A stretch of 64,000 nucleotides of DNA from Spizellomyces punctatus DAOM BR117. Its lineage: Eukaryota. The position numbers and the translations under genes are program-made. Below the pieces are notes generated by a model. It did not search any database. It had not been told where the DNA came from and worked only from the letters and a program-made list of their open reading frames with translations. The first letter of the stretch is position 1. The number at the start of each line of letters is the position of its first letter. Positions 1-63,578 of this stretch are shown here, piece after piece. The stretch lies in assembly GCA_000182565.2 (NCBI GenBank), contig KQ257465.1; one strand, written 5' to 3'.

Positions 1-80
1 AACCCTAACCCTGACCCTGACCCTGACCCTAACCCTAACCCTGACCCTGACCCTAACCCTAACCCTGACCCTAACCCTAA
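1..80. repeat. Telomeric repeat array with mixed TTAGGG/TCAGGG units (C-rich strand shown)
   Basis: 13 consecutive hexamers from base 1 (7 AACCCT and 6 GACCCT) plus AA, with the C-rich strand at the 5' end as expected for a left chromosome end. Confidence 0.93.
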
Positions 81-456: not shown

Positions 457-1632
457 CTAGTCCGTGCTTGTGATCAAAATGGTCTGTGAATCCGTCAGCG
501 CCGTATCAATGGGCTGGTAGATTGAGTTCGCACAGCCTTCTGTTGGGCCGCCGCTAACTATTCCTTGCGCGATCGCATGAGTCGTCGGGCGATTTGGGTC
601 TGGCTGAAAGAGCGGTCCCCCACTGTCGCCAGGGCGGGTACACACATCAGCAAGTGTCATGCCCTTTACCTGAACTCCTGCCGATTGGTAATTGGCAGTT
701 GCATCGTAAGCCTTGACCGGTCCACATGTGTACTTTGTCGTCGTCCCGCTCTTGCAAACCGTTGCGCCAATAGGAGCTCTTCCGTAACCAGATATCTTCA
801 GAGTCTTCCCGTTGTGGAGGGTGATCTGCGTCGTAGGTCTAGGCGCAGCGATGTCGTCAACGTGAATGATACCCCAATCCATGGGCCCGAAATTGTTTTT
901 TGTATTTCCGCCGATGAGCAAGGCGTTCCGAAACCAATTGTGACCACCACTTTTCAGGCAATGACCAGCCGACATCAGGAGATCCGCCCCCGATCCGTCC
1001 TTGACCCACCACCCCATAGAGCAGCTCATAAAGTTTGCTGAGGTGAGCTCTTCGCCGTCTAAGATTCCAAATCGCGGCTTTATCTCTGGACTACCGTGGA
1101 TTAGGTTGATGCCAGGGCCCAAACCGGACACTTCATTGATGAATACATCGGTATTTGTGTTGTTGCGCTTGATGTCCCATATACTGACCGCAATATTGTT
1201 GGCTGGGACGTCTACGTACCAGGTGACCCCAGTAGGTTGGTGTTTCTGAGCAGCTGCGTCGACCTGGCTTTTGAGGTCCTCCAGGTCTGATGTAGACCTG
1301 GCGACAAAGCGATGCTCGATATCTGGATCCGTTGACAAATCACGTCGATGTCGGTGCTCCGACTTGATTGCGACGATCAATTTTCCATTTCGCCGATCGA
1401 TCCAATGACCTCCATCTACAGTGGAGTTACTTTGCGAGCTCAGGAGAGTGGCTTTTGTAGAAAGATATTGTTCGCGCTTGAACAGAAAGCCAGCGTGATG
1501 GTGGTCGACTTGTTCTGCTTCGGCTATCGATGCGATAATTTCAGCGTGGACGGGATGTGGGTTTGGAGCTGCGATTGCCGAGCAAATCAACAGAGCCGAT
1601 GTCAGCGTTAAGAAGGCATTGGCAGCGTTCAT
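457..1632 (-). CDS. Secreted S1 serine protease, bacterial alpha-lytic protease/streptogrisin type with prodomain
   Basis: Intronless 391-aa ORF with a signal peptide (MNAANAFLTLTSALLICSAIA), prodomain-like TWYVDVPANNIAV, and catalytic motifs SAGHC, DWGII and VCTRPGDSGGPLF. It also has the streptogrisin-like segments CSMGW, IGATVCKSGTTTKYTCG and AQGIVSGG. Confidence 0.9.
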   Translation of the reverse strand: MNAANAFLTLTSALLICSAIAAPNPHPVHAEIIASIAEAEQVDHHHAGFLFKREQYLSTKATLLSSQSNSTVDGGHWIDRRNGKLIVAIKSEHRHRRDLSTDPDIEHRFVARSTSDLEDLKSQVDAAAQKHQPTGVTWYVDVPANNIAVSIWDIKRNNTNTDVFINEVSGLGPGINLIHGSPEIKPRFGILDGEELTSANFMSCSMGWWVKDGSGADLLMSAGHCLKSGGHNWFRNALLIGGNTKNNFGPMDWGIIHVDDIAAPRPTTQITLHNGKTLKISGYGRAPIGATVCKSGTTTKYTCGPVKAYDATANYQSAGVQVKGMTLADVCTRPGDSGGPLFQPDPNRPTTHAIAQGIVSGGPTEGCANSIYQPIDTALTDSQTILITSTD

Positions 1633-4010
1633 TTTTTTCTGGTTAACTTGGAGATCTGGAAGTCTACTCGACTCACTCCGACCTATTTATCGTCCGGCAA
1701 TTCGCACTGCAGTTCGGGCGGTAAATGGCGACCCCCGCCAAGTTCTTTGGCCGTCCCGCATCTCACTGGAGTAGTTGTATTGTGCTGAAACAAGTTCAAC
1801 GCAAGCTTCGACACTCAAAATTTGCTTGCTGTTCGTGTCGGTGAAAGTGCAGCCCTCCGTTGGCTTCGTGTGAGACTTCAAAACTAGCCTGAAGACCTAT
1901 TTTAACCAATGCCCACATACGTAAGTACCAAAGGTTTAGGATATAGATACTAAGAATGTTCAAAATCAAAGCTGAAAGTGGTGTGGCATTGTGGTGTCAG
2001 TCGTTCGCCAGCTCCGATCGGCCTTGTCCCGATCCAGTGGCTCCATCGCAAGAAACCCGTCGAAATACTCAAGTCTCAAAAGACAGTCATGCGCTTTTTG
2101 AAGAATGAGATTGCAGCTGGTACATGAACGCATTCCGTTGATTTAGTGACTTGATTTGATGAATAGGTCAGTACTGCAAAAACACAACTGATTGTTTTTA
2201 GCTAATCATACTGAACTAATACATTGGAAACCCTCCAATATGAATATTTACGCAGAAACGCACAGACATTCTTGAATCGCAACATATTACCCCTGATCGG
2301 TTGCACTTGCATGACTTGCAGTCTTTGATGGCCCCTCACATACGAGATGCCGATACACTCAAGCAACGTTTTGAAAATTGTGTTTTCACCATACGATGCG
2401 AATTGATGCAACCAACCCTCTGATACAAAAACGACATGTCCTTGCGTTACAAAAGAAAGAGAAGGAGGGGCAATCATCGAGCATCAGCGAAACCCACCGT
2501 GGCATTGGTTAAAAAGAATGGTTTAAAAGCATGATGAGAGGTCGAGGGTGCCACCCATCAGATAGTCTGCCGACCTGCTTAACCCTAAGTCTGGTGAGCT
2601 TGCAAACCGGGACAATATCGCTTGCTATAATTGGTACGACATGTTTCGTTGGCCCTCAACCCAGGGTCTATGAAATAACGATATTTTCCAAAGCTTACTG
2701 ACGATTTCTGAGGGTTGGGTCTTTACGAGCAACGCAGAAATAGTTATGTCTTGTAAACGGACCTTGGTTATAATTAGCTTATATCTCTTCACAAACCTAA
2801 ACATTTATTATGAATGCTCATTGAAATTATTTGCCTGAAACGTGTAAGTAGGTGCTAATTATCTAAAATCCACTCAAATGTCCAGAATATACAATTTGAT
2901 TCCCTGTCAAGGGTTGGTCGGATATCTACAAACTGAGAGCGAGCATATGCTTCGTTCGCTATCTGCGCACCTTTGAATGGCCGCCTGCTGTGGGTGATTT
3001 CATTTTTGGCACCGCTAATTCACATTTTAGATGGTGATCACTCCGTCGCTCCTGTTCGATGGAATCTGGAACCAATGACAAAGAGTTTGAGACTGTCTTT
3101 CAGTTCGTCTCGCTGAGAAGCAGGCGCCACTTGTTCGTACCCACTGGGGGTTAAGTCAGGTTTGGTTCCCCTCTACACAATGTTGCACATGTTGAGCTGT
3201 CTTAGTGTCACGACATCAGAACAAGGCCATCTCCTGTAAATATGGTGCATTCGCTGCACGACAAACTGCCGATACTGCAGACTGCATTATTCGTCCTACT
3301 TGCCAGGTCCATAGTCTAGTGCACCAGAATAATGGGAAGTAATTAAGCGGTGTACACACCACCGGCCTCCTCTTTACTGTACGAAGCTCAGGATCCTTCA
3401 AAATACAACGGGCGTGAACGGGCCAAGTATATTTATGGCGCATGGAAATACGCTATATGGGCACCAAGTTTACACCTTTGTGTTCATCAATCAAGCGAGT
3501 ATACTTCTACATCGTCTACAAAGAGAAGGAAATGGCTTTAAAGTTTAATGTCTCTTCCGTAGTCCTTGCGTGCACTGTACTGGGATGTGTCTATCGCAGA
3601 ACTGACGCCAAGAGGTTACAGGTACCAGAGTCGAATACGCAAATGACGGTAGCCGCGACGTTGGGCCTTGGTATGACTGCTGCACTAAATATTGCCCTTG
3701 ATCGCGTGGCTTCCACAACAAAAGCCCTAATGCAGGCGTGCTGATTCTGTCTCTATCGTTTGTGTTCTACACTGAAAATGTAACAGATTGAAGCGTCAAG
3801 CCATCACAAAAAGAAGGTCAGTTATCTTAGAATAGATGCATAAAAATCTATAAATCCCCAACTATGTGCGCTCCAGTTCTTTCAAGAGAGATCCATCACC
3901 ACATGAATGTTCTCATCGATGCCATTGACATCAGATACCTGCACACCACTATATGAGTCTGAGGGGCTTAAGGGGTCGGGCACGGTTATCTTCTTGATAT
4001 GACACCCTGC

Positions 4011-4491
4011 GTTCGATTTGCATCCAATTCCTCTCTGTCACTGTCATTAAAGTGAGTGAGGCCTCAATGGTTAATGGTTGAAGGTTTTCGGGTCACGTAT
4101 GGTGAAGAACTCTACAATGTCAGCGGCTTTTTAAAGCGGAGGGTCGTCATATCATCATGCGGACGTGGATGGGCTTTCAAAGCCTCCTAATTCAGCCCCT
4201 GCTACTGCCCTTCCACGGACCCCGTCAACAAAATCGGACACTGCCATCCTGCTGTTCGATTGCATCCAATTCCTCCCTGTCACTGTCTTTAAAGTGAGTG
4301 AGGCCTCAATGGTTAATGGTTGAAGCTTTTCAAGTCACGTATGGTGAAGAACTCTACAATGTGAGCGAGCGGCCCTTTAAAGCGGAGGGTCGTCATATCA
4401 TCATGCGGACGTGGATGGGCTTCCAAAGCCTCCTAATTCAGCCCCTGCTACTGCCCTTCCACGGACCCCGTCAACAAAATTGGACACTGCC
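4011..4491. repeat. Tandem direct duplication of about 240 bp (2 copies)
   Basis: Copy 1 at about 4011-4245 and copy 2 at about 4254-4491 both run gttcgat(t)tgcatccaattcc...ggacactgcc, with scattered substitutions and small indels. Confidence 0.93.
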
Positions 4492-4693: not shown

Positions 4694-5568
4694 ATGCCAC
4701 TTGAAATCATCGGCGCTGGTTTTGGACGTACGGGAACAAAGTGCGTTTGATTCCGTTGCTTGTTACTGCCTTCAAGGATCAACTGCGAGAAGGAGATGCT
4801 CATGTTTCAGCACTGATTTCTAGGTCCCTTCAACTTGCTTTGCAGCAACTCGGCTTTCCGTGCTATCATATGACCGAGGCAATCCAACATCCAACGGATT
4901 TTGCGGTGTGGACAGATGCTCACGATGGAAAACAAGTCGACTTGACCCAAATCTTCAACAAATATACGGCCACGCTGGACTGGCCGGCATGCGATTTCTG
5001 GAAGGAGCTCATGGAGGTCTATCCAAATGCCAAAGTCATTCTCTCGGTGAGAGATGCGGACACGTGGTACGAAAGCGTAAGGGAGACCGTATATAAATTG
5101 AATATGCTCCCGAGAAGCATAATTCAGAATTACCCAGACATAGTCAACGTATGTCGGTCGTGCTTAGAAATGGTGTCAAACGATCCTAAAGCATGTTTCT
5201 GATTTGCACAGGTCAACGAATATTGCCAACACAGCATTTGGGGTTTGGGAGGAAACTTCAAAGGCCAGTTCGAGAACCCGGCAATCGCCAAGAAAATCTT
5301 CCGTGATCGCCTCGAGGAGGTCAAGCGTAGCGTGCCCTCGGAAAAGCTCCTCGTCTTCGAGGTGTCGCAAGGTTGGGAACCCTTGTGCAAGTTTTTGGAA
5401 CGCCCAGTACCCAATGAACCCTTTCCTCGAACCAACGAGCGGGCTCTCTTCCAGAGCATGATCCAGGATATCATGACTGGCAGACCGATTGACAAACGGC
5501 CGAATTTTCCAGATCTTCGGCAGAACATTGGCGAGGCTGGGAAGGTGGATGGTGTATCAGAGAATTGA
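4694..5568 (+). CDS. P-loop sulfotransferase-like protein (Sulfotransfer_4 family), 3 exons
   Basis: Spliced translation gives MPLEIIGAGFGRTGTK|SLQLALQQLGFPCYHM...ATLDWPA...YPNAKVILSVRD...WYES...LLVFEVSQGWEPLCKFLERPVPNEPFPRTN. Introns are 4741-4823 and 5149-5211 (GT-AG). Confidence 0.9.
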
Positions 5569-7191
5569 GTGGGTTAATCAGAATGACCCCACTGCTAGCA
5601 TATTCAATTGGCAGCTCTTTGTCGTATATCACAATTGTATATTTCCTAGTCGAGAAGATATTTTCTCGTCTCCAAATTGCGATTCATACAACTTAATGAT
5701 TAGGGTCCAGTTATTACTTTCCCGCCAATGCCAGTGTTGTTGCAAGACCAGCGACAACGACGCATAGTTCTTCCCAAAGCTGCGTAACAAACTACGACCG
5801 AGACTTTCAGAGAAATTCAAAACTTGGATTCAGGCATTCTCTCTTCCTCCCGCTAATCTCTTGGATGGCAGCAATCCGCCGGCCACCTACACTATGTTCG
5901 TTTGTTGGCTAGGATAAGGCGATCTTCATCTGATGGACAAGCTCGTGGAGGCATACGTGCCTAAACTAGCATTTGCCATCCTGCCGTGCTTCCAAATCAT
6001 TGAAGGGTACAGTGTCTGGACACCTCTCTTCGGGCGTGCTGCACAACCCATATGTTATGTCGGTACCTAATAGTTTCGGGATGCAAGAGTTAGGAATCCT
6101 TGATGTTGACTGGCCACGGCGGAACTGATTGCCATCTCTCTAACGTTTAGCACTGGACACCCCATTTTGCTGCCTGTTCGATCCCATATATATATATGCC
6201 TGTACGTTGGTTACCATCATGTCACTGGTGATTGCTTAAGGTTACGCATCGGGGACAAACCCAGCCTGTGATTGATAGATGAACCGGCATCTACTGAAAA
6301 CTGCGGACGTGTTCGAATCCGCTCGTTCGTCATCTGCCATGTCATCTGGTGGTAAACTATAGGCCGCATATGTTAATGTTGCATTCTGTATATTGGAGAA
6401 GCTAAGGACAGAGGGATGCCTTTCAATCATCAGGAGCGTTGCCGACAATGGGGAAGATTCGAATCGACCTGTGCTCATTGTCCGATGATTCTTCTTCGCC
6501 ATACATCAGCAAAAACGTTTACCATCAGAATCTGACTGCTCTGGGGTTTTCTCGTAGATTACCCTATGTGAACTTCAAATGGGCAAGAGAGACCCAAATT
6601 GTCGGAAAATGTATGCCTTATAACGGCGACGGGACAGGATAGGTCAGGGGTAAGTCCAGTATTTACATACGTAGAGGTCGAAACCACAGCTTATCTGAGT
6701 AATAGATATCAAATTTCTAGTTCATCTGGGCATGAATTACCGGTATCGCCAGATCCCATCAACCTGCGATCAAGCAATGACTGTTGCCTTGATGGTTGAA
6801 ACGTCAGCAAAAATGAATGGTTCAGCTACTGGAAAGGGTTGAAACAACCAAAGATAATTCATGTCCTCCACTTCCTATACAATCCTCCCACAGTACGCAC
6901 TGAAGGGAGCTTACAATAACAGACTCGGAAATACTCAGTCCTATTGGCGCCAATTGCCATGCCAGTTGCTCACGAGTCCTTGATTCGGATCAATGATGCG
7001 AACGGGGACATTGAAGATAAAACTATCAGGCTATGTGTCTCGAATTTCTAGCTCAAATGACATAGTTTACAGAGAGAGCCGGGGGGTTCCATGGACCACC
7101 ATTGGTATGCTTTACAATAGAGACGACAAGTCAGTGCCCACAAATGTGATATGACAATAAATTATTTAATACTCGAGGCTTCTTGCCAGAG

Positions 7192-7257
7192 TCAAGTTGT
7201 CAGATAATGATGAGTCTCGAATGATTCAAGTTGTCAGATGATGATGAGTCTCGAATG
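7192..7257. repeat. Short tandem duplication (2 copies, period 34 bp)
   Basis: tcaagttgtcagat(a/g)atgatgagtctcgaatg occurs at 7192 and 7226. Confidence 0.85.
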
Positions 7258-8156
7258 CAACCGAAGCTTTATCAGCCAAGATATTCTGGAGTGTGTGAGG
7301 GATGGGCGACATGCATAGAGGAAGGGAGGGGATTGATCATATCCTCCCAATAGTACCTTCCAAAGGTAAAAGGTAAAATTGCGAAGATGATTCAATCTCC
7401 TGTTGGAATATGTATCTTATTCACTGCAATCCTACACTCCATTATTTGGCATGTCCTCAGGATGTAGGAAAGACTAGTATACAAGGTCCCTACTATCCCG
7501 CCTGTGGGACCACTCGTACATATCGTCGCTCTGGGTTGCAATGAACCAGGTCAGGATCCGCTGGATGAGATAGTTTACAGGGGACACTTTAGACGTTTCA
7601 AAGACAGTTCGGTAATGTTAAATGCCCTGTGGCGTTCCAGCAACTTGAGTTGACTACGCTCATGTGCCATTGTCATGAAGATAAACAATAAAATGGGTCC
7701 ACCTGCATCCATTTGATGAGTGGAACATGCACTTGTTTTTCTAGATAAACCCCTGTCTTGTTTGCTCTTTTCCCCTCTTGTCCTCCATCCTTGACTCTCA
7801 ACAAGAACCAAATCATCAGCATTGCCAATCTCGCGCCGAGGCCCTCGTCCTCTCGATAATGACAGCATTGCCAAGCAACTAATACGTTGCTATGATCGCA
7901 GATATGTCTTTGTAGATATTTCCCATGCTTATTGTCCAGACTAATTCTGCTTTACAAGTATCTGAACATCCTCTGACCAAACAGCTTCGGAAAGGCCCAG
8001 TGAGATTTTTGTTGTATGATCGTGGACTAATCACCCGGTTGACCAACCGCGACGTATTGCGATGCAGTAGCTATCTGGGCTGCTTGTCGCCAGACCCAAG
8101 TGGTTCTGGTGTATTTTGACATTTGTTATTGGCAAAATACTATCGGTATTATTAAA

Positions 8157-11100
8157 TTAGTGTTTCAAATAATCTGGCAGCCTAATTTGATGCTCGTATG
8201 CGTCCGCCTGCAGCCTGTGATCCCTCAGTAAATGTTCGATTGCCGAGTAAACTGCAGCATCCGCTCCTATCGTAGACTTGGGGGAGCTAACATGGTGGTT
8301 CAGGTGAGCGGCGAGGATGCTTGACGCGGTTGTGTTTTCCAATTTCCTTTTGGCCGCCTTTTTTGTCTCCTCGTTAACGACCCATTTTCTGTTACAGTTT
8401 GCTAACAAGGCCATCGCAAGCGCACTGACGTTTTGTATCGAATCAACCACAGTGGCAGCAGTAGTCTCCACCGAAGAGAAAGCCGCTTTCACTTCTTGCA
8501 CATCATCCGCTGAGACGATGGGTACACCCAAGGCAAGAGCAACAAGTGCGTTGTCGATTGAAGATGAGAAGGAGAGTACAGTACTGGAAACTGCGATTAA
8601 TAGCCGGTATCTCTCATCGGAGATGTATGGTTCTTCGTGAAAGGCACTTGCAACATCGTCCCTACTTCGGATTGCATCTCTAACGGCTTCTTGGAGGTCG
8701 CTTCCGTGAAGCGGAACCATCAGAAGTTTCCGTCGTCCTAACAGACTTGCAAGTGCAGATGCCACTTCAACGACCACAGGAGCATTCGTAGAACTAGAGG
8801 TGTATGCGACTACGCACGCCCCTGCGACGCTAATTGATGCGCTCTGGAAAGTCCGCATCCTAGCTCTAGTAATATCTCGAGGGGGCTTCAAGTACCCAGT
8901 GTCAATGCCACGGTCCAGAATATATACAGATTCCGGATTACGTCCGCGCTTGACAATGAAGTCACGTACATGTGCGTTTGCTACAAACGTGCGGTAAATA
9001 TACTTTCCGCTAGCAGCAGACATGGCAGCGAAACCCCTCGATAGAGGTCCAGCATCGATGGAATGAATGTAATCATACACCATCGTGTTGTCAGGTAAGT
9101 GCTCGACCAGGGAGGGAAGTGCTTCATATCCAAAAACAGATTCCGTCAGTACAAAAGCTTTAATCCCTCGACTCTCTGCCAAATAGGTCAGGAACCGCGG
9201 AAAATCTGCAGTCCTTAGAAACAGGGGAAGACTAAATACATCATGAGTATACATGTAGTACTCAGGACGGATCTCTTCGGAATCGTGCAAGACGGCAGCT
9301 ACGGTTACACGCCAACCGAGACGAGCTAGGTCGCCGACCATTTGGAGTGTTCTTCGCCCAGAAACATTTCCGCCAAAGCTGTCAATAAGGACCAACGCAC
9401 TGTTTTCCGACATCGATGCAATCCAATTATCAAAGGGGCGTCCCCATCTGACAGTCTCGGAAGGTTGAGATGGGGGAATATCGTGTGCCGGCCATGTTTC
9501 CGAAGTTAAGGACGGATACTTTGAGCGAATGTAGGCAAACGTCTTGTCCCAATTGCTCAAAAGATTTGTCCACGTATGACCACTCCCTACTCGGTACCAG
9601 TACGAAAGTTCCGGAATGGTGGCTCCCCAGTTGCCGTTTGCAGCAAGGCACAGCCAGTAGTCATAGTCATCCCCACCACTATTGAGCGCGGGATCATAGC
9701 TGCAATTGACCGATGCAGAACGACGATACAGCGACCCTGAAAAGAGTCGGTTTCCTGATAGTTGGCGGGACCCCGTATGGGGACCGCTGAGAGTGGTGTC
9801 CTGGTAACTACCGAATGACACCATATACCAGCACACGATTGCCAAGTGCGGATTGGTTTCCAATAACCACACGGCTTGTTCGAGAGATACCAGCTCACGC
9901 AGATCATCGTCATCGAGGCAAACTTCATATTTGGCGTTCGACTAAAAACAAGCGGTATTGACTATTAGCATCAGCACATATCTCCGGCAATGAGCGCAAC
10001 ACACGTACATGCTGTCGTGCCACGTTTCTTGCGTTGGAGATACCCGGATTCCCTGTGTTATTAACCAGCACGATCCGCGGATCTGAGGCCGCTACTCGTG
10101 TGAGCATAGCCATCGCTTCCGGTATATCTGTATGGTCATTTACGATAATCCAACGAAAGGACTGAAGACTTTGTTGGAGCACAAAGGCAGCTGTATCACT
10201 CTCAAAAATCGGTTTAGGATTCTTGGTAACGGTAAGAATAGAAAGGATAGGCGTCGAGCCTGCCAAAGACCCTGACGATAAGAACTGATTGCGCGGTCTG
10301 GCAGGGTGTAGTGGAGTACGCTCGTAAAAGGTTGGCTCTGTCAATCGCCGTGGGCGAGCATTGGGGGACACTTTAAATGTAACAGCTTTTTCCTCGTCAG
10401 GGAGATTGTTCTGAGTCTTGATACTAGCGTCATATAGTGAACGGCATTCCCATCCTGTTTTCTGTCCGTCGAATTTGCAGCCAGGGCCTTCAAGCTTGCT
10501 TCTTTTGATCACTGAGCTCAGTAGAAAGCACCAAGCTATGACCTGCCAACAACAGGCAGCACGGGTCCCCCATTTCGATTTCCTGGCAACTGCACACGTT
10601 GATAACTGTCCCTTGTATGCATCTACTTGGCTATAGCCCTTCCCAGTACCAACAATCTCAATTGGTTCTTCCTTAGTCTGGCAGTAAATACCTCCAACAG
10701 CTCCAGCCATGACCAAAAAAATGCCGATCGTCACCGGGGATTGAGTACTGATATGGAAGTATGTCGGCCACCCATCTTGTTCCATAGTAGACGCTGAAAG
10801 GAGAACGATAACGGCCGTTCCAGTTCTAACAACTTGAAGGATTGTTCCTGAGACGATATGATCCAGAACACGCGCGTAGTAATTTCCGGCGACGGCGAGA
10901 ACAGATGTAAGGACAATGAGTGATGGGATTGACCAATTCGTATTTGCATGCTCTGTTTGCGCAAAATGCTCTCTCGTGTACCCGACTATCAACATCGTGC
11001 CAATCGTGAGTAAGAACGCAAGGTGTCCGTACGAAGTACCGAAATCATCATTTCGGTGGGCCTTGGGTATGCGGGCCCCAGACACACTGCGGAAGAATAT

Positions 11101-11659
11101 CGCAGCAACCACTACTAGCGACATGGTAACGTTCATTCCGGCGATTGTCTCCGCAGACGCTAAGGCAGCGCCGAAAAGCAGGATACCACGAAAGACCCAG
11201 ATAGACAGAATGTGGGGAGATCTCGAGCGCAATGTAGCGATACATGGGTCAATTAACATCCATAGAGTTTGGAAGACGCCAATCGGAAGAAGTGCGATGC
11301 TCCTGTAACACAATAAACGAGACTGAATTGGTAAAATGCTCGACAGATCAATATTTTTGGGGTACCCAAGGCAAAACACTAACACTAACGTACCAATATT
11401 CAAGCGTGAGTGCGACAGAATTAATCAAAGACACCGCCCAAATAGACTGATCATTTTTATCCAAAGGATAATAAATGCCCAGCTTTTTGGCGATGCGTCT
11501 AGATATATGACATGATGATTGATGGATAAGGGACAGGAACAACGCGAATTCGAGATAGGAATCTGGAGGTGCTGTTGTGAAGAAGAGCTTGTTCGCAAGC
11601 AGTCCGGTAACGCTCGTAGCAATCGAGGCAATGATGGCCAGACTTCCTCGCATTGTCAT
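8157..11659 (-). CDS. Fusion protein of about 1114 aa: N-terminal nucleotide-sugar/TPT-transporter-like multi-TM domain, GT2 domain and degenerate GT4-like domain
   Basis: Exons 11659-11394, 11302-10009 and 9941-8157 (both donors GTACGT) join in frame. The N-terminus has many hydrophobic helices with SVTGLLANKLFF and SIALLPIGVFQTL. GT2 motifs are ILSILTVTKN, LQQSLQSFRWIIVNDH, GISNARN, CLDDDD, GDDYDYWL and YWYR. The C-terminus is GT-B-like (LARLGWRVTV, RGIDTGY, ALALGVPIVS). Confidence 0.78.
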
Positions 11660-12088
11660 AGGCGCATTGCACGTTTGGGCGAACGATCCTTTGATGGTCA
11701 GAGGAAACGGTGCAGCACGACGCGTCTGGTGGTAGGGCTAACGTAAACCGCGACGCGATCGTTGGGCACTCGTTGATGTTCACGTTATGTTGCACCCGCA
11801 GATACGTCGCTCCGACGATTGAAGTAGCAAGAGAAGAATGCGCATATGAATTGTCTATGGGCCTGCGATATGAGTCCTATTCAAGTTTCGTCTGTGCAGT
11901 AATTCACATATGCAGAATGTGTCAGGAAGCTAAGAGATGGCTTGCTAATGATCACCAATCATGCGCGTATCGTAAGCGCGCTTCCTTTTAGCAGCCCGTT
12001 ACACCTTCTCCCGGTTGGTAGCTAGAAAGCACACACACTGCGTATACTCTCGAGCAATAGCACTTTGAAAACGCTCCCCGTCGGGCTC

Positions 12089-13237
12089 ATGGCTGCTCAA
12101 TTACACGCGTTTCTCACGAGTCGACCGTCAAAGATCAAGCGGGCAACCTTTTTCGCTTTATTCCTTTTTATATTTACCGTCGCATATTTCCACAACGAAT
12201 CATCAGACCGCACTATAGTGCAATATGTTCTGACGCCCAAAGGACGGAAGGCCTACGAATGGCCATTGGAGGACGGTATAATAGTGCCCAAAACTGGGCC
12301 CTCTCGTCGGCATTACTTTACCACCTGGCGGTCGCGGGAAGACAAGATTCCGATCAAACTCGATCTTACCCTTGGAACCTTCTTTTATCATCATCCTGAA
12401 GAGTCATTTCACATCTGGTCGAACACGTTGAGTAACAACTCTATCGCTTCGTATCGCGAACTGGGATACGACCTTCACATTCAACAGTATGATTTCCCGA
12501 CTCTTGCGAGACTATGCGATGTGTCGGGTAGTCTCGCTGCTTGGGCAGTAAATGGCACCTTCTTAGCACCTGGAGCCCCTCATTACAACACGCATGAATC
12601 AGATTTCCTAAAAGTGTGCATCAACTACATTTACGGAGGCCTGTATGTTGACGGGGACACATTCTTCCTGGATAGTTTTACTCCAGATGACATTCCCGCT
12701 GCTATCTTTTTTATCAGCGCGGACGAGAAACGTGGAGATCGTTGTCCTCCAGCTCCGGATCCCGTTACATGTTCCGCCCCGCATGTCAGACAGATAGAAG
12801 AAGGAGGCCGACCATATTTAGTACCTAATAGCGTTTGGTTCAATAGCAACCCCTTTGTCCTGCCCCCCAAGTCGCCGTACGCGCATGCAGTCCTCTCGAA
12901 CATGGAAGCGTTCACCGATCCACACTGTTGGAACTGTATCGGCCCGAGATCCCATTCGAAAGGTTATGCCGATCTTGTGGCGAAAGGAGACGCTTTGCTT
13001 CTTCCTCCCCTTCTCCGCTCCTGCGACAACCTGGCGGCAGAGCACATTCCGTGGGTTGCCAAGGGCCGATGGGAGGAGACTTGGGGGTTATTTTCAGCTT
13101 GCCGATGGATCCATATGTTTTCGGCTGGCCGGCCAATGGACATCAACGAAAATTCTGTGTTTGTATCATTGATGCAAACGAATTGCGTCCCTGAAATTTG
13201 TTTGAAATATATGCCAAAAACGCTGCGTAGTGGATGA
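12089..13237 (+). CDS. GT32-like DxD glycosyltransferase (alpha-1,4-Gal/GlcNAc transferase/Och1-related), type II membrane
   Basis: Intronless ORF with an N-terminal TM anchor (ATFFALFLFIFTVAYF) and the motifs YFTTW, SDFLKVCINYIYGGLYVDGD, IGPR and WIHMF. Confidence 0.82.
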   Translation: MAAQLHAFLTSRPSKIKRATFFALFLFIFTVAYFHNESSDRTIVQYVLTPKGRKAYEWPLEDGIIVPKTGPSRRHYFTTWRSREDKIPIKLDLTLGTFFYHHPEESFHIWSNTLSNNSIASYRELGYDLHIQQYDFPTLARLCDVSGSLAAWAVNGTFLAPGAPHYNTHESDFLKVCINYIYGGLYVDGDTFFLDSFTPDDIPAAIFFISADEKRGDRCPPAPDPVTCSAPHVRQIEEGGRPYLVPNSVWFNSNPFVLPPKSPYAHAVLSNMEAFTDPHCWNCIGPRSHSKGYADLVAKGDALLLPPLLRSCDNLAAEHIPWVAKGRWEETWGLFSACRWIHMFSAGRPMDINENSVFVSLMQTNCVPEICLKYMPKTLRSG

Positions 13238-13491
13238 ATATAGTGGGGGTTGTTAGGCGGTTCTGTAACTTGTAGAGTTAGGTTGAAGAGATTAGTTTTG
13301 CTTCTGTCCCAATGCGGCTCATATTCTCCCATTTTGCCCAACCCAATCTTGCTGTAAACAGATTACATTTTGGACAGTATCCTGTGCTCTTTCTATTCTT
13401 CTCGTATAAATTATGGTATCCGCATCCTGCACGGCGAAATATACCGCAGCTTATCAACAAACTAATATGCATACACTTACGGCTGCTCTCT

Positions 13492-14499
13492 TCAACATGC
13501 TGAATCTTTGAAGACAGCATGGCAGCCATCAAGTTGGAATCGCGTCTTGCAATCATGCCACCACACACTTCTTTCTCCCCAGATACTCTTGTCATGAATC
13601 CCTTTTGCTTCATTTGCCTTGCCCAGAAACTTTTCAGCATACTTAAAGCAGCCACAATTGAAGTCCCCATCGTAATCCGCCCAATATCTGTCCAATCCAT
13701 ATAGCCACGTCCCTACCATTAAATCTTCTATCTCATATACTTTCAGTTCCTCCGCATTTCGGCCGATAAATCGTACCAGATCCCATCCTACCATGTATGC
13801 AGCACCGACGCCGTATGGGTGTGTTTTTATCACTGTGCCACGAGTGTCTTGCACAAAGAGCGGATCGTAGAACTTGTGTTTGGGATCTTGAGGCAGCTCC
13901 GCATTCCACAATGTACCCCCATATATCCTCCTTCTTTTTTCCTTTGGCACTTCGGATACGGCTTTGGCCAAGCGATTTAGGCAAAGCACAACGTCATCAT
14001 CAGTTTTGATGAGGAATTCCATCGACGTGAACTTTTGTGAGAGGTAGATAAAAAGTCGACGCATCTTCTCCCCAAGATGCTTGTATCCGCTAGGAGTATT
14101 CAGATAGAGGACATCCCCCTCCCAATGTGTTTGTTTTGACGTGTCTACTATAAAGATCCAGTTGAACGGTACGGTGGTTGACGTATTTGCCCCCGGTTCC
14201 GGTATACTGAGAGAGTTTTGGTATCGCCTCCACCAACGGCGACCATATTCCCGTCGAAGCATTCCAGCTTCATCATCAGTGCTTAGAACCGCAATGATCA
14301 CGCCGCCGTTTGACCTGTCCAGATGTTTTGGAAGGTTCCCGTTGAGTGAGTTAATCAGCGCAAAAGATTTCAGGGCTGACGCAAGGAAGTTGAGACTAAT
14401 GACAGCACTGACGAAGATGGCCAAAGAAATCAGAATCTTGTGCCTTGACCGGTATGTGAAGAAGCTGTAACCTGTTGGCTTGAGGGCTGGACGGTACAT
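13492..14499 (-). CDS. GT31-like beta-1,3-galactosyltransferase, type II membrane
   Basis: Intronless ORF from the ATG at 14499 with a TM anchor (ILISLAIFVSAVISLNFLASAL) and the motifs IIAVLS...RR, GDVLYL...YKHLGEK, FLIKTDDDV, PYGVGAAYMV and IEDLMVGTWL. Confidence 0.88.
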   Translation of the reverse strand: MYRPALKPTGYSFFTYRSRHKILISLAIFVSAVISLNFLASALKSFALINSLNGNLPKHLDRSNGGVIIAVLSTDDEAGMLRREYGRRWWRRYQNSLSIPEPGANTSTTVPFNWIFIVDTSKQTHWEGDVLYLNTPSGYKHLGEKMRRLFIYLSQKFTSMEFLIKTDDDVVLCLNRLAKAVSEVPKEKRRRIYGGTLWNAELPQDPKHKFYDPLFVQDTRGTVIKTHPYGVGAAYMVGWDLVRFIGRNAEELKVYEIEDLMVGTWLYGLDRYWADYDGDFNCGCFKYAEKFLGKANEAKGIHDKSIWGERSVWWHDCKTRFQLDGCHAVFKDSAC

Positions 14500-15789
14500 T
14501 CTTGGAGAATAAAAGAGGAGGAACCAGCCAAACACGCGCGTAAGGCCAATCCAGAGACGCGTCGACGCGTCCAACCCAAGTCCAAGTTATGCGCCAGCCA
14601 TCTCCAACTTGACTCGAGAATTGCGAGGTTGTCCACAGCCTGACATGGAATTGGGATGGCTAGTTATTGCATATACATTGCGCACATGTTTTTAGTTTAG
14701 TGAATCTATCCAGACGTTTTGGCTCCATCGCATGCTCTCCGTCATGAAGGACGTTGTCCGATGCCAGCTCAAGAGTTACTGTTCGATTGCACTGCGCATT
14801 GAAGGAAAGCGGCGAAGTTGTTAATCTCGGCCTGAAATCTACGTGGATCTTTTCACTGGCGTGCGCGCAGCGAAGCATCCCGTTCGTTATCAACATTCAG
14901 GATACTGTTGTCGGTAATGACAAGCTACCGAGACCAACGAAATAAGTAAATATTGACAAAAGAGCCCTTGGGGGTACTTGTTTGAAACATGATCTTGCGG
15001 CTATCATCCGATGTTTGTAATGCCCGCTAACAGTCATCATACACCATTTGCAAGACTGGACTCCATGGGGCTCTTGCAGTGCAACAAGGGTACACCATTG
15101 TCGTGATAGCTTTGACCGCATCGACATCGGTGGGGACCGCCAGTAGCTCTCCTTTTGCCGTGAGGACTTAATGTAACAGTACAAACAGCAACAAAGGGCA
15201 GTTGTTGCGCATCAGAAACATTGCTGAGAGCCAGTTAAAATGCATTGACACGTCTAAAGGTGACTGTGAACCCTATCGCGCAACGGCGCTTGGGCACCGC
15301 TGTAGCTTCTTCTGTTAGATTGCATACTAATATGATCCACCCTATTGTTTCGCTGAACCTGAATTGAATATCCTTGTTATGGTGCATCTGGACTCAACCT
15401 ATTCACGTTGCGGACCCAATCGCCGTGAGACGGAGGCCAACGCTGTGTATGGTACAGAATAGGTAGAGATCAATCTTCTCAATGAATAGAGCTTTCAATA
15501 TCTTCAGCTAATGTCTTGAGTGCGTTGTTGCAGCATCTGCAAAATATGTTATTCTTATCCGCGAGCCTTGCGGATTTCATGCTCATCAGCGGAATGCTGC
15601 TGATGTAATACTAATTCATCCTATTAAGGAAACTGTGATATCCGCTTACCTGCCTTTCTTGGATTCATATTACCTTTCTGAACTAAATGTCGGGTTACGT
15701 AAGGCAGATCGGTCGTGTCGCGTTCAAACACGACATGGCTCGGACGCGTTCACCAGTCCTGGTGAACTGTTCCTGCATCGAGAGACGGC

Positions 15790-16971
15790 ATGGGTCAACG
15801 ACCAGCGTACCATCTTTTGGAAGGTCATTCTATTCGAATTCTGCCTCGTTCGAGGCTGCTTCTCCGGAAACATGCTCTCGTACTCTTTGCGGCATTTATA
15901 CTCACCTGTTGCCTGGTCTACCATGCATCATTTTCTGCTGGACGTATCTCTATCAAGCACAATTGGTCTCTTTCCGGCACTGATGAAATCATTTCGCAAC
16001 TCCCTTCTCAATCACCGGTCACCATCATAACCGCGTTTTTTCCGTTAAAATCTAAACATTCGACTTCAAGTTACAACCAATGGCTTCGCAATTTCATGAC
16101 GAAAGTTTCTGGCCCCATGATTGTGTATACCACTCGATCATATGCTTCTCAGATTGCGACCCTACGAAAGGGATTCGAGCATTTGACGACTGTGATTGCA
16201 GATTTTGACAGCATATGGGAACTACCACCGAATCGAAACTATAGCGACATTTACGCCGATCAACATAAAATGGATCCTGAAAAACATCATCACACCCCTT
16301 CTTTGTATGCGGTCTGGGCGGCAAAATTATGGATGGTGGTTCAAGCGACAGAGTTGAATCCGTTTAATAGCAGCTATTTCTTTTGGGTTGATGCAGGTTC
16401 ATTTAGGGATAGGGCGCATCCTTATCGTCTTTGGCCAGATCCCTTCACTGTTGACGAGATATGGAAAGGTGGTGGACCAGAGCGACGCAAAAGTCCTATC
16501 GTAGGATTAATTAACTCATGGGGCTCGCTCAATCAGTTCGAAAACGTTCACGAATCTGAGCCAGATAGTCTCTTGGACCAAACGGCCGACCGAATAGAGG
16601 GGGGTTGGTTTGGCGGGCCCATAGAGGCGATAACGTGGTGGGCCCATGAATTCTATCGCTTGCGGGACAAATACGCGGAAATGGGCAAATTCATTGGCAA
16701 GGTAAGTATCAAAAGGTTCACTGACTTCACCTCAAAGAGATATTAAGAGCATATGGGCTATCTATAGGATCAACTAGTGCACAATGCCATCGCTCTTTTG
16801 AACCCTCAGAGAGTTTTGGTGCTGGAAACCTATAAAAATGCAAATCTGCCGACATGTAAACTGGATCCATGGTTTGCGTTCCAAAACTATCTAGCTCATG
16901 AATCTGAACGCGTCCGGGGTTGTCCTCACACCCCCGCTCTTTCATTAGATGAGGCGATGGGCACATCATAA
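15790..16971 (+). CDS. HtrL/YibB-like putative glycosyltransferase with N-terminal TM anchor, 2 exons
   Basis: TM anchor HALVLFAAFILTCCLVY and the motifs VTIITAFF, MDPEKHHH...LYAVWAAK, NPFNSSYFFWVDAGSFR, IEGGWFGG, FIGK|DQ and WFAFQNYL. The intron is 16702-16767. Confidence 0.75.
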
Positions 16972-17172
16972 TGTTAGATAATACAGATAGCTATCAAATA
17001 AGGGGCTCCAGCACTGACAGGAAAGCCAGAAAGTAGGCAGGAAAGGTATTAGCCAGTCACGGTTACGATACAGCGAGGTCACATGTCCACACCAGCTTAT
17101 ATTTACGCAAGCAGCAAAGTACAATGTTAGCTTTCAGCCAAGATCTTTGTCTAGTTCATTGCTTCATCCATT

Positions 17173-18641
17173 TCACGTTTTCCAATGGCATTGGCTATGA
17201 TCTGAATCGGTTCGATCACAAAAATAAGTGATGAGTTACGCAAATCATCGACAATCTTTCTCCAGCGTACTTACGCAGATAGCCTGGCATCTCCTTCAAA
17301 TATCGTGCAGCCTCGGCCCATTTCCCACCTTTGACTTCCTTCGATAATATTCGCAAGGTTGCGTACATGCACGGCTCTCCCAAGGCTGATCCCCAGTATC
17401 GCACCTTGAGAATTTCCGTTGCTGTCGTAATGCGCTCATAAAGATGCATAACAGTCAGATACGGCAGTCCGGTCCACGCCGCCGCAATTTGACCATATGA
17501 GGATCCCAAGGTGACGATCCGATGATCACAATGCATCAGCAAACCCATATCCCACAACCCGTCTGCCAACGATCCGCCTGGGTTATTGTTTTCGTTCGTG
17601 GATACCACGTCAATAGGCGTGTATATCACACGATGTTTTCCCAACATTGACGACAGCTCCTGGCGCGCCGAGGGAGAGTCTGCAGCCACAAAGAACCGGA
17701 TATCATCTAGCGCAACACCAGATTGCATTGCCACTTGAAGAGCAACATCTGCATATGTTCTGATCTGTGGCACTGTTTTCTCGTTTTTCAAACGCCGTAC
17801 GTGGATACCGATCGTATACTTTCCAAAATGTGAATACTTGAAAGAATGCACTTTGGCCATAATATCGCTGTGTATGCTGATAAATCGCCGCATAACGTGA
17901 TAAAATATGCGGCCATCCGGGAACCATTCTTGCAAGATGGCCCGGTAATGTGGATTTGCTTGCAGAAGAGGGGCTGAATAATCAAAGCCGCGGACCCCCC
18001 ATATCCGGTGAGCTCCATAAACCTCGTTCAAGTCACTCGTAGCCAAAGTCAGCCATGTTCTATCCCGATCATGATTCCCGTGTTCGAGAATGTAAATGAA
18101 AGTGCTTTCAGCGGACGAGGTTAGTTTGCTCTCGTACTTTGACCAATTGAGCTCGATTTTGGATTCAAAGAGTTCTGGGAGCTTTTTGTAGTCCTGCGGA
18201 AGACATTGAAGGCTATGAGCAACTAGTTACCCAGTTGACCACCCCTTGCCCACTTACAACTAACAGTACTCGTCCTGTAAGCAACGCTACCAGCATTCCA
18301 TTTAAGATTTGAGGTATATTGTTTCCAAGGCCTGCCTGTAGAAACTCCACCTTGACGAACGCTGTATCGGCATCCTCTAGATTCCTTAAAGCCCGCTCAT
18401 GCCGTTGGATGTACGCGTCAAACACATGGTCAAATGTCTTTTGCTGCGGTTGAGAGCGATTGGCTTGAGGAATGTCGCTGAGAAGAAAGACCTTTTCTAG
18501 GCCTTGTCGAGCGTATAGTTGGGATGTTATAGCAACAGAACGGGAAAAGAGAACCAGGCCGAGGAAGATTGACACGGTCACTGCGCCAAGTAGGAATAGT
18601 CGCTTTTTCCGGCGAGATCTACCGTCCACAATGAGGAACAT
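17173..18641 (-). CDS. GDP-fucose-dependent fucosyltransferase, GT37-like (GT11/23/37 superfamily), type II membrane, 3 exons
   Basis: TM anchor after RRKKR and the motifs AGLGNNI...ALLTGRVLLV, IGIHVRR, FFVAADS, DMGLLMHCDHRIVTLGSSYG and EPC. Introns are 18257-18194 and about 17274-17202. Confidence 0.8.
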
Positions 18642-51766: not shown

Positions 51767-52779
51767 GCGTCATGCATTGCCGATTGTGGCCATTAGTTGA
51801 TATATGTATAAAACCATATTTTTTGTACTTCTGCATATCTTGGGCGTTACCGCAAAATTAAAGAGGACATAATGCACACTTTGGGTTGATCCCTCTAATT
51901 TTGAAACTATCCTGGGCTTTAACGTGTTGGGAGCGTCGGACGGTACCCTGATAGCAAACACTGTTGGGCCCACGCTTATGAAGCCACGTGAAATAGCAAA
52001 CACACAGCGGAGTATTTTTTTTTTATAACGCAATATACCGGACATTTTCATGCACTTGGCAGCAAGGGATTTCATTATTTGTGAATCTTTAGGTGTTTAT
52101 CCTATCATGTTCATCAAACCTCATTCTGTTGCAATGTGACGTATTGTACGCTGAAAATCTACAAGCACCTGCAAACTCTCAACGTTTTGTCCATTGTTGT
52201 GCTGTCAGGGGAGATGGAGGGAACCCTCTGCCCGGACCTTTCCACGGACAAGCAGGGACATTTTAACGCAAGTATTTGGCACAACATGTTCACATAGCAG
52301 ATCCAGTATTTGCTGCTTACCTGCTTACTAGTCGCGTAACGCGCAAACAAAAAATGTTCAAACTCCGACTTGCCCATGTCGGTCCCAAATCCATTTCACT
52401 TCCATACGGTTTTGGCCCTTTGCGCTCCATATGCACATGCAAACAAACAGATAGGCCCGAGTGTACTTGAGACATCCAGGAAAACTCCGCATAATACAAT
52501 ACTTCAATATAAATATCTTTCAATCATGGAACTATCAGAAAACCCCAGTTACCCGAGCCATTTATGGGTAAGCCCATCTCGAGCCCAGCTTGAGCACTGC
52601 TGGCCCGGGTCTGCCTGAGAGAGTTTCTTATCATTAATGGAAACTCTATCAGACATAAAAGCAGCCGTCCTCCCAGTCATCCCCCTCCACCATCGCTGCT
52701 CGCCCGTCCTAATTTTGATCAAGGTCGGTCGTCTACTACTCTATCTTTTCCTTGTTTCTGCATCACTCTCCGGGACACA

Positions 52780-55700: not shown

Positions 55701-55991
55701 GAATCCCCATCTGAATCTTCCTCTGACTCTTCTTCATCGGATGAAGCAACCCCTACGAGCACTGGAGGATCCAGGCGCCGTGTGCGTCGTGAGCTTTTCG
55801 CCCGTCAAGCCAGCACCCCAGCCACGATTGTCCTCAAGCTCGGCACTGGAGCCAACACGGTCCAAGGTACCTACGAACGCACCAGCACCGACACCCCTGG
55901 TCTTGACAGCGGTGCAAGCTCTCTCGGCCACTCTTTGGCTGCCATGTTTGCTGCTGTCTTGGCTGTCTTGGCTGGTGTATTCGCCTTCTAA
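52780..55991 (+). CDS. Ser/Ala-rich mucin-like, probably GPI-anchored surface protein (interrupted by an assembly gap)
   Basis: N-terminal hydrophobic signal, a roughly 95-aa Cys-containing domain, more than 2.5 kb of Ser/Ala repeats, then RRRVRR and a C-terminal GPI-like signal (DSGASSLGHSLAAMFAAVLAVLAGVFAF*). The reading frame is broken around the gap. Confidence 0.8.
53530..54020. repeat. Coding minisatellite, 75-bp period (about 6 copies, SSAAPTSVSSGSISSAASSSGSASG)
   Basis: tctgcggc(c/t)cc recurs at 53551, 53626, 53701, 53776, 53851 and 53926. Confidence 0.92.
54280..54504. other. Assembly gap (225 N)
   Basis: Run of N inside the repeat region, with apparent indel errors in the flanks. 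Confidence 0.99.
54640..55690. repeat. Coding minisatellite: 57-60-bp units (APTSSAESSSSAAGSSSSSA) followed by shorter SSAE-rich units
   Basis: Four identical 60-bp units at 54901-55140, with near-identical neighbours. Confidence 0.92.
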
Positions 55992-56957
55992 GCGGATTGA
56001 CCTTTTTATACATCGCATCATAGTGTGATGGGGATGGGCTATATTTTGCATCTGTGTCTTGCTTGTAATGGAATACCAACAATAGAATCGTAGCTGTTTT
56101 TGTTCACAGTTTTTGCTATTGGTCGACATGTCCCCCATTCGTTTACGGTGTCAAGCTGTGGCAGACCTCATTTTTCGCAAAGGATATACAGAAAAAGATG
56201 ATGTTGCACCTAAAAACCTTCCAGCATCAAAGGTCAACTTTTACATGTTTGTCGATGGTCAAACTGCTTGCATGGTGCACAACGTGAAAGATGGCGGATG
56301 TACGTTTGCAACCACATAGCAAATGTTTAGATGATACGGGTGTGACATAAAGCCGTCGACGAAGACATGTGGCATTTGGCCACTACGCCGACAGATTGTT
56401 TCTCCATCATATCTGATGTCCATGAAAGCGTGCCTTTTTGCCAAAGTACTGCTGTCCGACAGCAAGTGAGACCTTTGAGTAGTTGGGTAGACTCGAGTTA
56501 GCCTCTACCCTCCGAACAGCTGTCTGGTTTGCTGTAACGAAGCCAAACTCTTTGCGCAAGTTGCAGGCGAGTAAGGTGGCAGGTATGCTTCCGAATCAAT
56601 CATTGCCTCTTCTCCAGTCCTTTTCGTTGGCTTCTTGGCCAGAGTTCAAAGCGCTTGTTCAAATGCCCATGCACTCAAAATGTTTGTTTTCCAGAAAGTC
56701 TACTAGTTAAAGCGTAAAAAGTTGTGGCACAAGGCGCCAATCGACGAGAACTCTTCGCGTCCGCTTTTTGCAGTTTTCTTGCGGGCGATTGGAGTAGATA
56801 TTGACCGATAGCCAAGGAAAAAAAACACAAGCAGAGCTGTAGGAAGTAGCAAAGACGTTGTGTTCGTGAGGGAGAACAAGAACGCAGACTTTACCTTCTT
56901 CACGGAAACGCCTTGTGGAGACTGATCTAGCTAGTTCCTGGAGATCGCAAGGCCGTC

Positions 56958-62912: not shown

Positions 62913-63578
62913 TAAATACTGTGACGAGTTGACGAGCATGATTTGATGAATTTGTAGAATATGATTTTTGCAAGCTGCTTTCCTAATATCAATGTACAAT
63001 GAACAAAAGCAAACGACACAAGAGAAATGTGTATCTCCTTTGGGTAATGTTGATAAACGACATTTTTCTGATTCGAGTTCACCAATGACCATAGAAAGAG
63101 ATTCAACAATGATATTGGCCGTCTTTTTGACTCGAAGGGACACTGATAAAGTAACAGCGCTACAAAAATCCCACTCGACCTTCGATAGAGCCTTTAAACA
63201 TATGCAAAAAAGTTTCCAACAAACTCATCCCCCATGCGTTGCGTCTCTTGGACATAAGTTCACCAACCATTATCCTTCTTTTTGACTACAGAGCGAGCCC
63301 GACCGGATAAAGAATAGATGGTTGCACGTAAACCTATCAAGTGCAAGAGCTGCAATGGAGGTTAATGGGTCAACGTCCTAATCTAAATCGAAGGGCAATT
63401 TCCGTTTTATACCAAAAGTCGTCGTGGCGCGGTTATACACGTGATAGAGTATTACGTAAGTACCATCGGGGGGTCAGCGACGATGGGGGAAATCCATTTT
63501 GTGTGCGGATGGAGCGAAAACTCATAACGAACAGCTGGTTCCGCACGCCGTCGACGGCCGTACGCTCAAAAGCCCGCA

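Follow-up and report, generated by a model that had tools for sequence, protein, structure and literature searches.

Genes for glycan synthesis are as a rule clustered in bacteria but seldom so in eukaryotes. Here we describe five adjoining genes, SPPG_07428 to SPPG_07432 (G1 to G5 in what follows), of the chytrid fungus Spizellomyces punctatus DAOM BR117, all of them of glycosyltransferase (GT) type. They occupy 8157-18641 of the window, a 64,000-nucleotide stretch of contig KQ257465.1 (assembly GCA_000182565.2) that forms a scaffold end. By analogy, the closest fungal precedent is the galactosaminogalactan (GAG) cluster of Aspergillus fumigatus, which the accessible parts of two reports describe as coregulated and as made up of uge3, sph3, ega3, agd3 and gtb3 (PMC4817252, PMC8224951). 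Both loci consist of five adjacent fungal genes and, in those accounts, the GAG genes build one extracellular or surface glycan. They differ in composition: the GAG cluster is there described as one large transferase together with an epimerase, hydrolases and a deacetylase, a system of the synthase type, whereas the chytrid cluster holds five transferase-type genes of different families and no modifying enzyme, unless a nearby sulfotransferase gene belongs to it.

The chytrid locus also resembles bacterial O-antigen, capsule and lipopolysaccharide-core loci and the glycan clusters of giant viruses. In these, too, unrelated GTs stand side by side and HtrL/YibB-type genes occur together with genes of GT2/GT4 type. 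Unlike the chytrid locus, they also encode functions such as sugar-nucleotide synthesis, a flippase or a polymerase, and they serve the cytoplasmic membrane or the virus factory. The chytrid proteins instead have type II anchors of the eukaryotic kind, and none of the window's open reading frames (ORFs) scanned was a sugar-nucleotide synthesis gene. We tentatively favour the reading, at a little short of even chances, that SPPG_07428-07432 form a lineage-specific subtelomeric Golgi glycan-biosynthesis module. The cluster itself is real, its adjacency is non-random and it is undescribed. In line with the first-pass annotation, made from the DNA sequence by a model that knew of no such cluster, we found no paper naming SPPG_07428-07432, and none of the five gene ids occurs in the supplementary files of Farrer et al. 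2017. Literature searches returned no relevant paper for fungal glycosyltransferase gene clusters by that term or for chytrid fucose, and no paper on a chytrid glycan pathway as judged by titles and abstract openings.

Exon structures were established by tblastn of the annotated proteins and inspection of the splice junctions (Table 1). The first-pass annotation had described five consecutive genes in alternating orientation (- + - + -) with no recognisable gene between them, and ORFs, exons and the Rfam and tRNA scans all agree with this. G1/G2 and G3/G4 are two divergent pairs, the gaps between the five genes measure about 429, 254, 1290 and 204 bp, and a scan of 1-22000 revealed neither an Rfam family nor a tRNA or long repeat. 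Its subtelomeric placement was likewise borne out, the cluster lying 8-19 kb inward of a telomere repeat array at 1-80, as were the single N-terminal transmembrane anchors it gave to four of the proteins, which the hydropathy scan places in G2 to G5. It had also called the families non-paralogous. All-against-all BLASTP found no similarity among the five proteins, with no pair below E 1, and this mutual dissimilarity excludes tandem duplication.

Such a run of genes is far beyond what chance would produce. Among the 8,804 genes of S. punctatus, 88 GT domains have been counted (Zhao et al. 2013, Table S2), and with these numbers random placement is expected to yield about 9e-7 runs of five GTs. 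Even with 200 GT-like genes assumed, the expectation is only about 5e-5. The adjacency might instead reflect aggregation without a shared pathway, with the chromosome end gathering young, fast-evolving, condition-specific GTs that decorate separate acceptors and stand together through subtelomeric birth or retention. We regard this as a realistic possibility. Against it, five different GT-type families in a row represent a roughly million-fold excess over random placement, and all five genes are intact and transcribed at similar levels. Furthermore, a scan of 75 ORFs from the rest of the window, each 110 aa or longer, produced no match to a GT family. This end thus shows no sign of general GT enrichment. 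No paralogues of G2, G4 or G5 appeared in our searches and so, at the sensitivity of these searches, none of the three comes from a large drifting family.

The gene order was also examined in Spizellomyces 'palustris'. Its orthologues of G2, G3, G4 and G5 (g07995, g07994, g07993 and g07992, respectively) bear consecutive tags on one 55.6-kb contig, and those of G4 and G5 show approximately 93% protein identity to their S. punctatus counterparts. Four of the five genes are therefore also neighbours in the sister species. The protein closest to G1 there, g05749, is 54% identical but on a different contig from g07992-g07995.

G1 is the largest of the five proteins. It begins with a polytopic membrane domain (residues about 1-300), followed by a helix at residues 337-355, a GT2 domain and a GT4-like module of GT-B type; the hydropathy scan gives eight or nine peaks and then the one later helix. 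A single ORF at 9928-11424 encodes the membrane helices and, after a linker, half of the GT2 domain (its first half), and because it is uninterrupted the fusion is real in the DNA and not a gene-model artefact. The GT2 domain scores 37.4 bits against Glycos_transf_2 (cut-off 23.3; residues 462-571 of P0158). Its DDDD run (D530-D533) is invariant in four chytrid G1-type proteins and aligns with the DxDD of bacterial and yeast relatives.

The C-terminal module is more diverged. It remains below the cut-off for Glyco_transf_4 (14.1 bits against 28.5, E 0.05), and the full protein has no Glycos_transf_1 match. Searched exhaustively and without a profile, the last exon (594 aa) nevertheless returned 1,316 proteins at E <= 0.001 and, among the matches listed, the best non-self proteins with a long N-terminal extension were from chytrids. 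The nearest non-chytrid named relatives, as for G4, are from Sporidiobolales red yeasts. The next relatives after the chytrid proteins are GT2-GT4 proteins of Rhodotorula, Sporobolomyces and a choanoflagellate, together with bacterial-type proteins of ~750 aa, to which the GT2 and GT-B modules of G1 are homologous in full-length alignments (28-37% identity, E down to 1e-60). Two-domain GT2-GT4 enzymes of bacteria, red yeasts and a choanoflagellate thus align with G1 along its modules. They differ in keeping a strong Glycos_transf_1 match and the GT4 donor-site glutamates of the EX7E motif, whilst the four chytrid proteins have lost this motif and acquired a multi-pass membrane domain. Twelve of the 150 listed G1 matches were aligned, and the glutamates were present in all eight yeast, choanoflagellate and bacterial-type relatives; both were replaced in P0158, P0009 and P0011, and one of the two was lost in P0010. 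Since these donor-site glutamates are lost, the GT4 module of G1 is probably not catalytic.

What the membrane domain was is suggested by its homologues. In Borealophlyctis nickersoniae (1103 aa, P0011) and Fimicolochytrium jonesii (1141 aa, P0010), a Nuc_sug_transp domain precedes the GT2-GT4 core, at E 1.5e-93 for P0011 (profile positions 5-315 of 315) and E 5.8e-16 for P0010, amongst 14 of the 150 listed matches scanned. From this position in the homologues, we infer that the membrane domain of G1 is a diverged descendant of a transporter domain. Language-model features of the G1 N-terminus, at 0.94 to DMT/nucleotide-sugar-transporter clusters, offer a lead only. So far the fused family has been seen in Spizellomycetales and Rhizophlyctidales chytrids, and no paper on a nucleotide-sugar-transporter/glycosyltransferase fusion was found in our literature search. 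Of the transporter/GT2/GT4 architecture that G1 had first been given, the GT2 part stands and the GT4 part holds for homology though probably not for activity; the transporter label does not follow from the S. punctatus sequence alone.

A known system that may be analogous comes from the mammalian Golgi, where the accessible part of one report describes complexes of the nucleotide-sugar transporter SLC35A3 with MGATs (PMC6453868). In both cases donor transport would be physically coupled to lumenal use, the G1 family being the covalent version. As described there, the mammalian partners are separate proteins and, whilst the Fimicolochytrium and Borealophlyctis domains match transporter profiles, that of S. 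punctatus no longer does.

The GT32-like and GT31-like labels first attached to G2 and G3 are both upheld by Pfam scores above the cut-offs. G2 matches Gly_transf_sug (GT32) at 26.5 bits (cut-off 23) and carries its DXD motif as VDGD in the translation. It is type II anchored through a hydrophobic segment at residues 16-34 in the hydropathy scan. It had no match among Protein Data Bank (PDB) sequences, and a word-indexed search, which would miss distant relatives, found relatives only within Spizellomyces. G3 matches Galactosyl_T (GT31) at 58.7 bits (cut-off 23, E 9e-16) and is a type II anchored protein of the GT31 beta-1,3-glycosyltransferase type, with one N-terminal hydrophobic segment and a DDD run in the translation. 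By sequence, its nearest solved relatives are B3GALT6 (E 1.5e-7) and B3GNT2 (2e-4). GT31 spans several donor specificities. A poly(A) site near 13368, visible as a poly(A) loose end in 11 reads, marks the end of the G3 transcript.

G4 was first described as HtrL-like. Its own score against HtrL_YibB (PF09612) is 21.0 bits, below the 24.1 cut-off, but the family is present in relatives at 33-40% identity (P0169, P0172 and an ORF on L002 at 35.5 bits). The protein is type II anchored, with one N-terminal hydrophobic segment in the hydropathy scan. An AlphaFold2 model built from a 15-sequence alignment has a mean predicted local distance difference test (pLDDT) score of 76.7 and a predicted template modelling (pTM) score of 0.75. 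In a Foldseek search the model matched the GT6 enzymes ABO and alpha3GalT and the GT8 enzyme XXYLT1 at E 1e-5, and VIA gave Z 12.6 to LARGE1 (root-mean-square deviation 4.4, 212 aligned) and ~11.5 to alpha3GalT/ABO, over about 200 residues. The GT-A enzymes that it resembles are retaining enzymes. Because the predicted fold matches GT-A enzymes over the catalytic domain, G4 can be called a candidate GT-A fold transferase. At the sequence level, its comparison with PDB produced one meaningless match. We found no relevant paper on HtrL in eukaryotes.

The relatives of G4 bear on where the cluster came from. The word-indexed search places them in Spizellomyces, Sporidiobolales red yeasts and environmental sequences, and they are plentiful on dense, mostly low-GC lake-metagenome contigs. 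Two of these contigs were annotated, and both regions (L009:3516-10756 and L025:7352-10759) look giant-virus-like, with RNA polymerase Rpb3/11, MutS, Cu/Zn superoxide dismutase and SKI2-like helicase genes. Each carries two HtrL/YibB-like genes beside genes for GT2/GT92, GT4, WcbI, a methyltransferase and a nucleotidyltransferase. This suggests that the HtrL copies on these two contigs lie in viral glycan clusters.

The cluster, or most of it, could on this basis be a horizontally acquired glycan island, taken from bacteria or giant viruses and landed by the telomere beside the transferred protease gene. The five genes are intron-poor (0-2 each) with long ORFs of 326-594 aa, compared with the many-ORF housekeeping genes nearby; the protease gene nearby, itself reported as transferred, has 0 introns; G4's Pfam family bears a bacterial name; G4 relatives sit in the glycan clusters of the two giant-virus-like loci scanned; and many bacterial-type proteins of ~750 aa are related to the GT2-GT4 core of G1, one of them from a Sterolibacterium metagenome-assembled genome. 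Other observations speak against acquisition. G1, G4 and G5 have spliceosomal introns, the type II anchors of G2 to G5 are eukaryotic, and so are the families that G3 and G5 resemble. A scan of 185,579 prokaryote genomes with a pattern from the G4 alignment gave 79 pattern matches, none of which was confirmed as a G4 relative. GC content at third codon positions (GC3) is 0.45-0.51 in the five genes and 0.42-0.52 in neighbouring housekeeping exons. In a G4 tree of 35 rows, the chytrid protein is placed with weak support (85/51) among sequences from red yeasts and others of eukaryote-like character. It falls outside a clade, well supported at 100/99, whose 18 rows come from the dense and mostly low-GC contigs. 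The rows comprise 26 of the 80 loci, less L023, L074 and L079, which were dropped for stops, and 12 of the 15 alignment proteins; several branches are long and the deep nodes unsure. In the accessible part of Ciach et al., the transfer table does not contain KNC97027 to KNC97031, a comparison that did not take in KNC97032-97034 (G4, G5). As GC3 matches the neighbours, G4 has this placement in the tree and these ids are absent from the table, a recent transfer of the whole block is not supported, and we consider acquisition of the island improbable.

The weakest family call of the five concerns G5. The first-pass annotation had named it a GT37-like fucosyltransferase. The GT37 match is weak, the protein scoring below threshold against both XG_FTase (15.6 bits against 23.4, E 0.006) and FUT8_N_cat (12.8 bits against 27.6, E 0.05). 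A motif of 35-40 residues (98-137) aligns weakly to Arabidopsis GT37 FUT1/FUT4 (E 0.014-0.044), an HVRR run aligns with their H/Q-V-R segment, and language-model features lie at 0.94-0.96 to the FUT8, XG_FTase and O-FucT clusters. A glycine-rich N-terminal motif and a basic H-x-R-R motif play a role in fucosyltransferases. G5 thus weakly resembles the GT-B fucosyltransferase superfamily at the sequence level. It is type II anchored with one N-terminal hydrophobic segment in the hydropathy scan, its intron at 17202-17274 was confirmed in 7 RNA reads, and the word-indexed search found relatives only within Spizellomyces. Fold prediction was unusable (pLDDT 34.9, alignment of 2 sequences). G4 and G5 are convergent, with ~200 bp between their stop codons, and RNA reads of both strands overlap at 16808-17274. 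Since reads of both strands share a bin, the 3' untranslated regions (UTRs) of the two genes probably overlap.

Family matches are weak for G4, G5 and the GT4 module of G1, this GT4 module has no catalytic motifs and the G5 model is poor, which might indicate that the five genes are not functional enzymes at all and are decaying pseudogenes or mis-called ORFs. We find this very improbable. The intact frames agree with the annotated proteins, G4 and G5 retain their high identity to the sister-species orthologues, DXD-type motifs are intact in G1 (GT2), G2 and G3, the GT-A model for G4 is confident, and the locus produces sense RNA with a confirmed intron and poly(A) site.

The module that we tentatively favour can be given a working order from what is known of these families, which would also supply its Golgi location, lumenal orientation, donors and common product. 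Within the Golgi lumen, the five transferases would work one after another on a single acceptor class, a glycoprotein or glycolipid, to make a Spizellomyces-specific heteroglycan. G1 would be the membrane-embedded core, with its polytopic domain at the position of the nucleotide-sugar transporter of its homologues. Its extra helix would put the GT2 domain, of the inverting type and with an intact DXD, in the lumen, whilst its GT4-like module, having lost donor-binding residues, would be a scaffold at most. G3 (GT31, inverting) would then add a beta-1,3-linked sugar, G2 (GT32) and G4 (GT-A, retaining-like) would add alpha-linked sugars, and G5, the fucosyltransferase-superfamily-like protein, would cap the chain. 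The 'fucosylated, galactosylated' product proposed in the first-pass annotation is a guess. It is not inferable, as GT31 donors vary and the G5 match is below thresholds. A bolder version would make the core of G1 a transporter covalently fused through one helix to a lumenal GT2 and a pseudo-GT4, the donor being handed over directly and the four type II transferases docking on it or acting after it to give a species-specific surface glycan. Such a eukaryotic counterpart of an O-antigen locus is, in our judgement, doubtful.

Several observations weigh against these proposals, beginning with G1 itself. Its N-terminal domain matches no transporter family in Pfam up to E 10, and hhalign gives a probability of 0.1% for a transporter. 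Set against the corresponding domains of P0010 and P0011, it reached nothing significant, with E 0.19-0.55 in hmmsearch and E 0.2-2 in BLASTP. Conservation in S. 'palustris' is a weak test of clustering, covering four of the five genes in a very close species; little rearrangement is expected at ~93% identity, so the adjacency there is little informative. No S. 'palustris' orthologue was seen in the 90% cluster of G1. Further afield, G1-like and G4-like genes of Sporobolomyces pararoseus are on separate contigs in both of the two strains in which the pair was seen. A relative of G4 also lies on a metagenome contig of eukaryote-like character, where none of the 14 other ORFs matched a GT family, and word-indexed searches found no relatives of G2, G4 or G5 in the chytrids that have G1-like genes.

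Evidence for joint expression is similarly mixed. RNA evidence comes from a single run, X7, with 60-nt, 3'-biased reads whose first mate is sense. Sense depth at the 3' ends was 3.9-5.2 for the G1 region, 11.4 for G2, 11.1 for G3, 5.2 for G4 and 9.9 for G5. All five regions are thus transcribed, within about threefold of one another, compared with 11-38 for a neighbouring Rho GTPase gene. The G1-side reads (7468-8401) could represent a long 3' UTR or a separate small transcript. Runs X1-X3 were rejected as expression evidence; their contigs span intergenic DNA, keep the G5 intron and look like DNA.

DNA methylation was taken from a 2025 study (PMC12695648; supplement file 10, sheet 3C), the accessible part of which reports that N6-methyladenine (6mA) marks expressed genes in S. 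punctatus without tracking stage-specific changes. The five genes are discordant in this mark. The 6mApT fraction (multinucleate/zoospore) is 0.0005/0.0013 in G1, 0.0004/0.0002 in G2 and 0.0006/0.0007 in G4, and 0.026/0.023 in G3 and 0.049/0.053 in G5. At the gene level, 6mA is near zero (0.0002-0.0013) in SPPG_07426-07429, nearest the telomere, and in SPPG_07431, and 0.014-0.057 in the neighbours SPPG_07433-07436. Across SPPG_07426-07436 (460 to about 30000) the mark forms a patchwork with no simple subtelomeric gradient.

The promoters have no motif in common either. No 9-mer or 10-mer is common to the three promoter regions, and the one 8-mer that they have in common is not beyond shuffles (mean 0.29, maximum 6).

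Of the claim in the first-pass annotation that the genes are one co-inherited module, the part that stands is the adjacency of four of the five in the sister species, and sense RNA from all five regions in the one run. G1-like and G4-like genes are unlinked in red yeasts, and the discordant 6mA marks and the missing promoter motif leave co-regulation unsupported. These observations count in favour of aggregation at a chromosome end, as do the unmarked state of all of SPPG_07426-07429, the lack of relatives of G2 and G5 outside the genus in the word-indexed search and the character of the flanking genes, the protease gene published as a bacterial transfer and the Sulfotransfer_4 gene, which are also lineage-specific or acquired.

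A cluster of five transferases in a genetically tractable chytrid that can be transformed would be a compact, testable entry to the surface glycans of chytrids, on which our searches turned up little. If the fusion is what it appears to be, the G1 family would be a natural transporter-glycosyltransferase fusion and direct genetic evidence for the coupling of transporters and transferases proposed in the Golgi. If the genes are independent, the locus would still show that genes for lineage-specific secretory enzymes collect at a chromosome end, next to a gene published as transferred from bacteria.

Table 1. Positions in the window of the five clustered genes, the regions between them and features towards the telomere.
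Feature	Position	Strand	Description
Telomere repeat array	1..80		CCCTAA units mixed with CCCTGA units; marks the chromosome end
Trypsin with alpha-lytic protease prodomain, gene nearest the telomere (KNC97026.1)	460-1686	-	0 introns
Sulfotransfer_4 gene (SPPG_07427 by position)	4705..5565	+	Two ORF pieces, Pfam E 1e-32 and 5e-22
G1 (SPPG_07428)	8157..11659	-	1114 aa; two introns; exons about 11659-11394, about 11302-10009, 9941-8157
Promoter region common to the divergent genes G1 and G2	11660..12088		429 bp; from gene coordinates
G2 (SPPG_07429 by position)	12089..13237	+	382 aa; single exon; exact protein on record
G3 (SPPG_07430 by position)	13492..14499	-	335 aa; single exon
Divergent G3-G4 intergenic region	14500..15789		1290 bp; no gene detected; RNA depth 0-0.26
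G4 (SPPG_07431)	15790..16971	+	371 aa; exons 15790-16701, 16768-16971
G5 (SPPG_07432)	17173..18641	-	443 aa; exons 18641-18258, 18193-17275, 17201-17173

On the telomeric side, the repeat array is not a pure repeat, with CCCTGA variants interspersed among the CCCTAA units. For the protease KNC97026.1, the accessible part of Ciach et al. 2024 reports an actinobacterial source (Phytohabitans) of the transferred gene, whose own 6mA level is near zero. The two ORF pieces of the Sulfotransfer_4 gene are in the same frame, and the short intron between them contains an in-frame stop. The gene lies 2.6 kb from G1 and is a possible accessory that could sulfate the product of the cluster; nothing so far ties it to the cluster. 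Upstream of it, a sequence of ~245 bp is directly duplicated in tandem at 4000-4491 (89-97% identity), and two 34-nt tandem copies are present between it and G1 at 7189-7256.

Beyond G5 follow genes for a Rho-type GTPase and then a PTP-like phytase, CSE1, a BRCT protein, Pex14, a metacaspase and AMP deaminase. The housekeeping genes on this side are broken into many short ORFs. Further along, composition is strongly skewed at 52000-56000, with a GC skew of -0.34 and an AT skew of -0.42 at 54-56 kb. The same region contains ORFs of 377-390 aa without a Pfam match and 225 masked N at 54280-54504. Close to the far end of the window, an ORF at 63528-63869 (+) matches the Tau/MAP tubulin-binding repeat in two stretches (E 3.6e-15), a family discussed mostly for animals.

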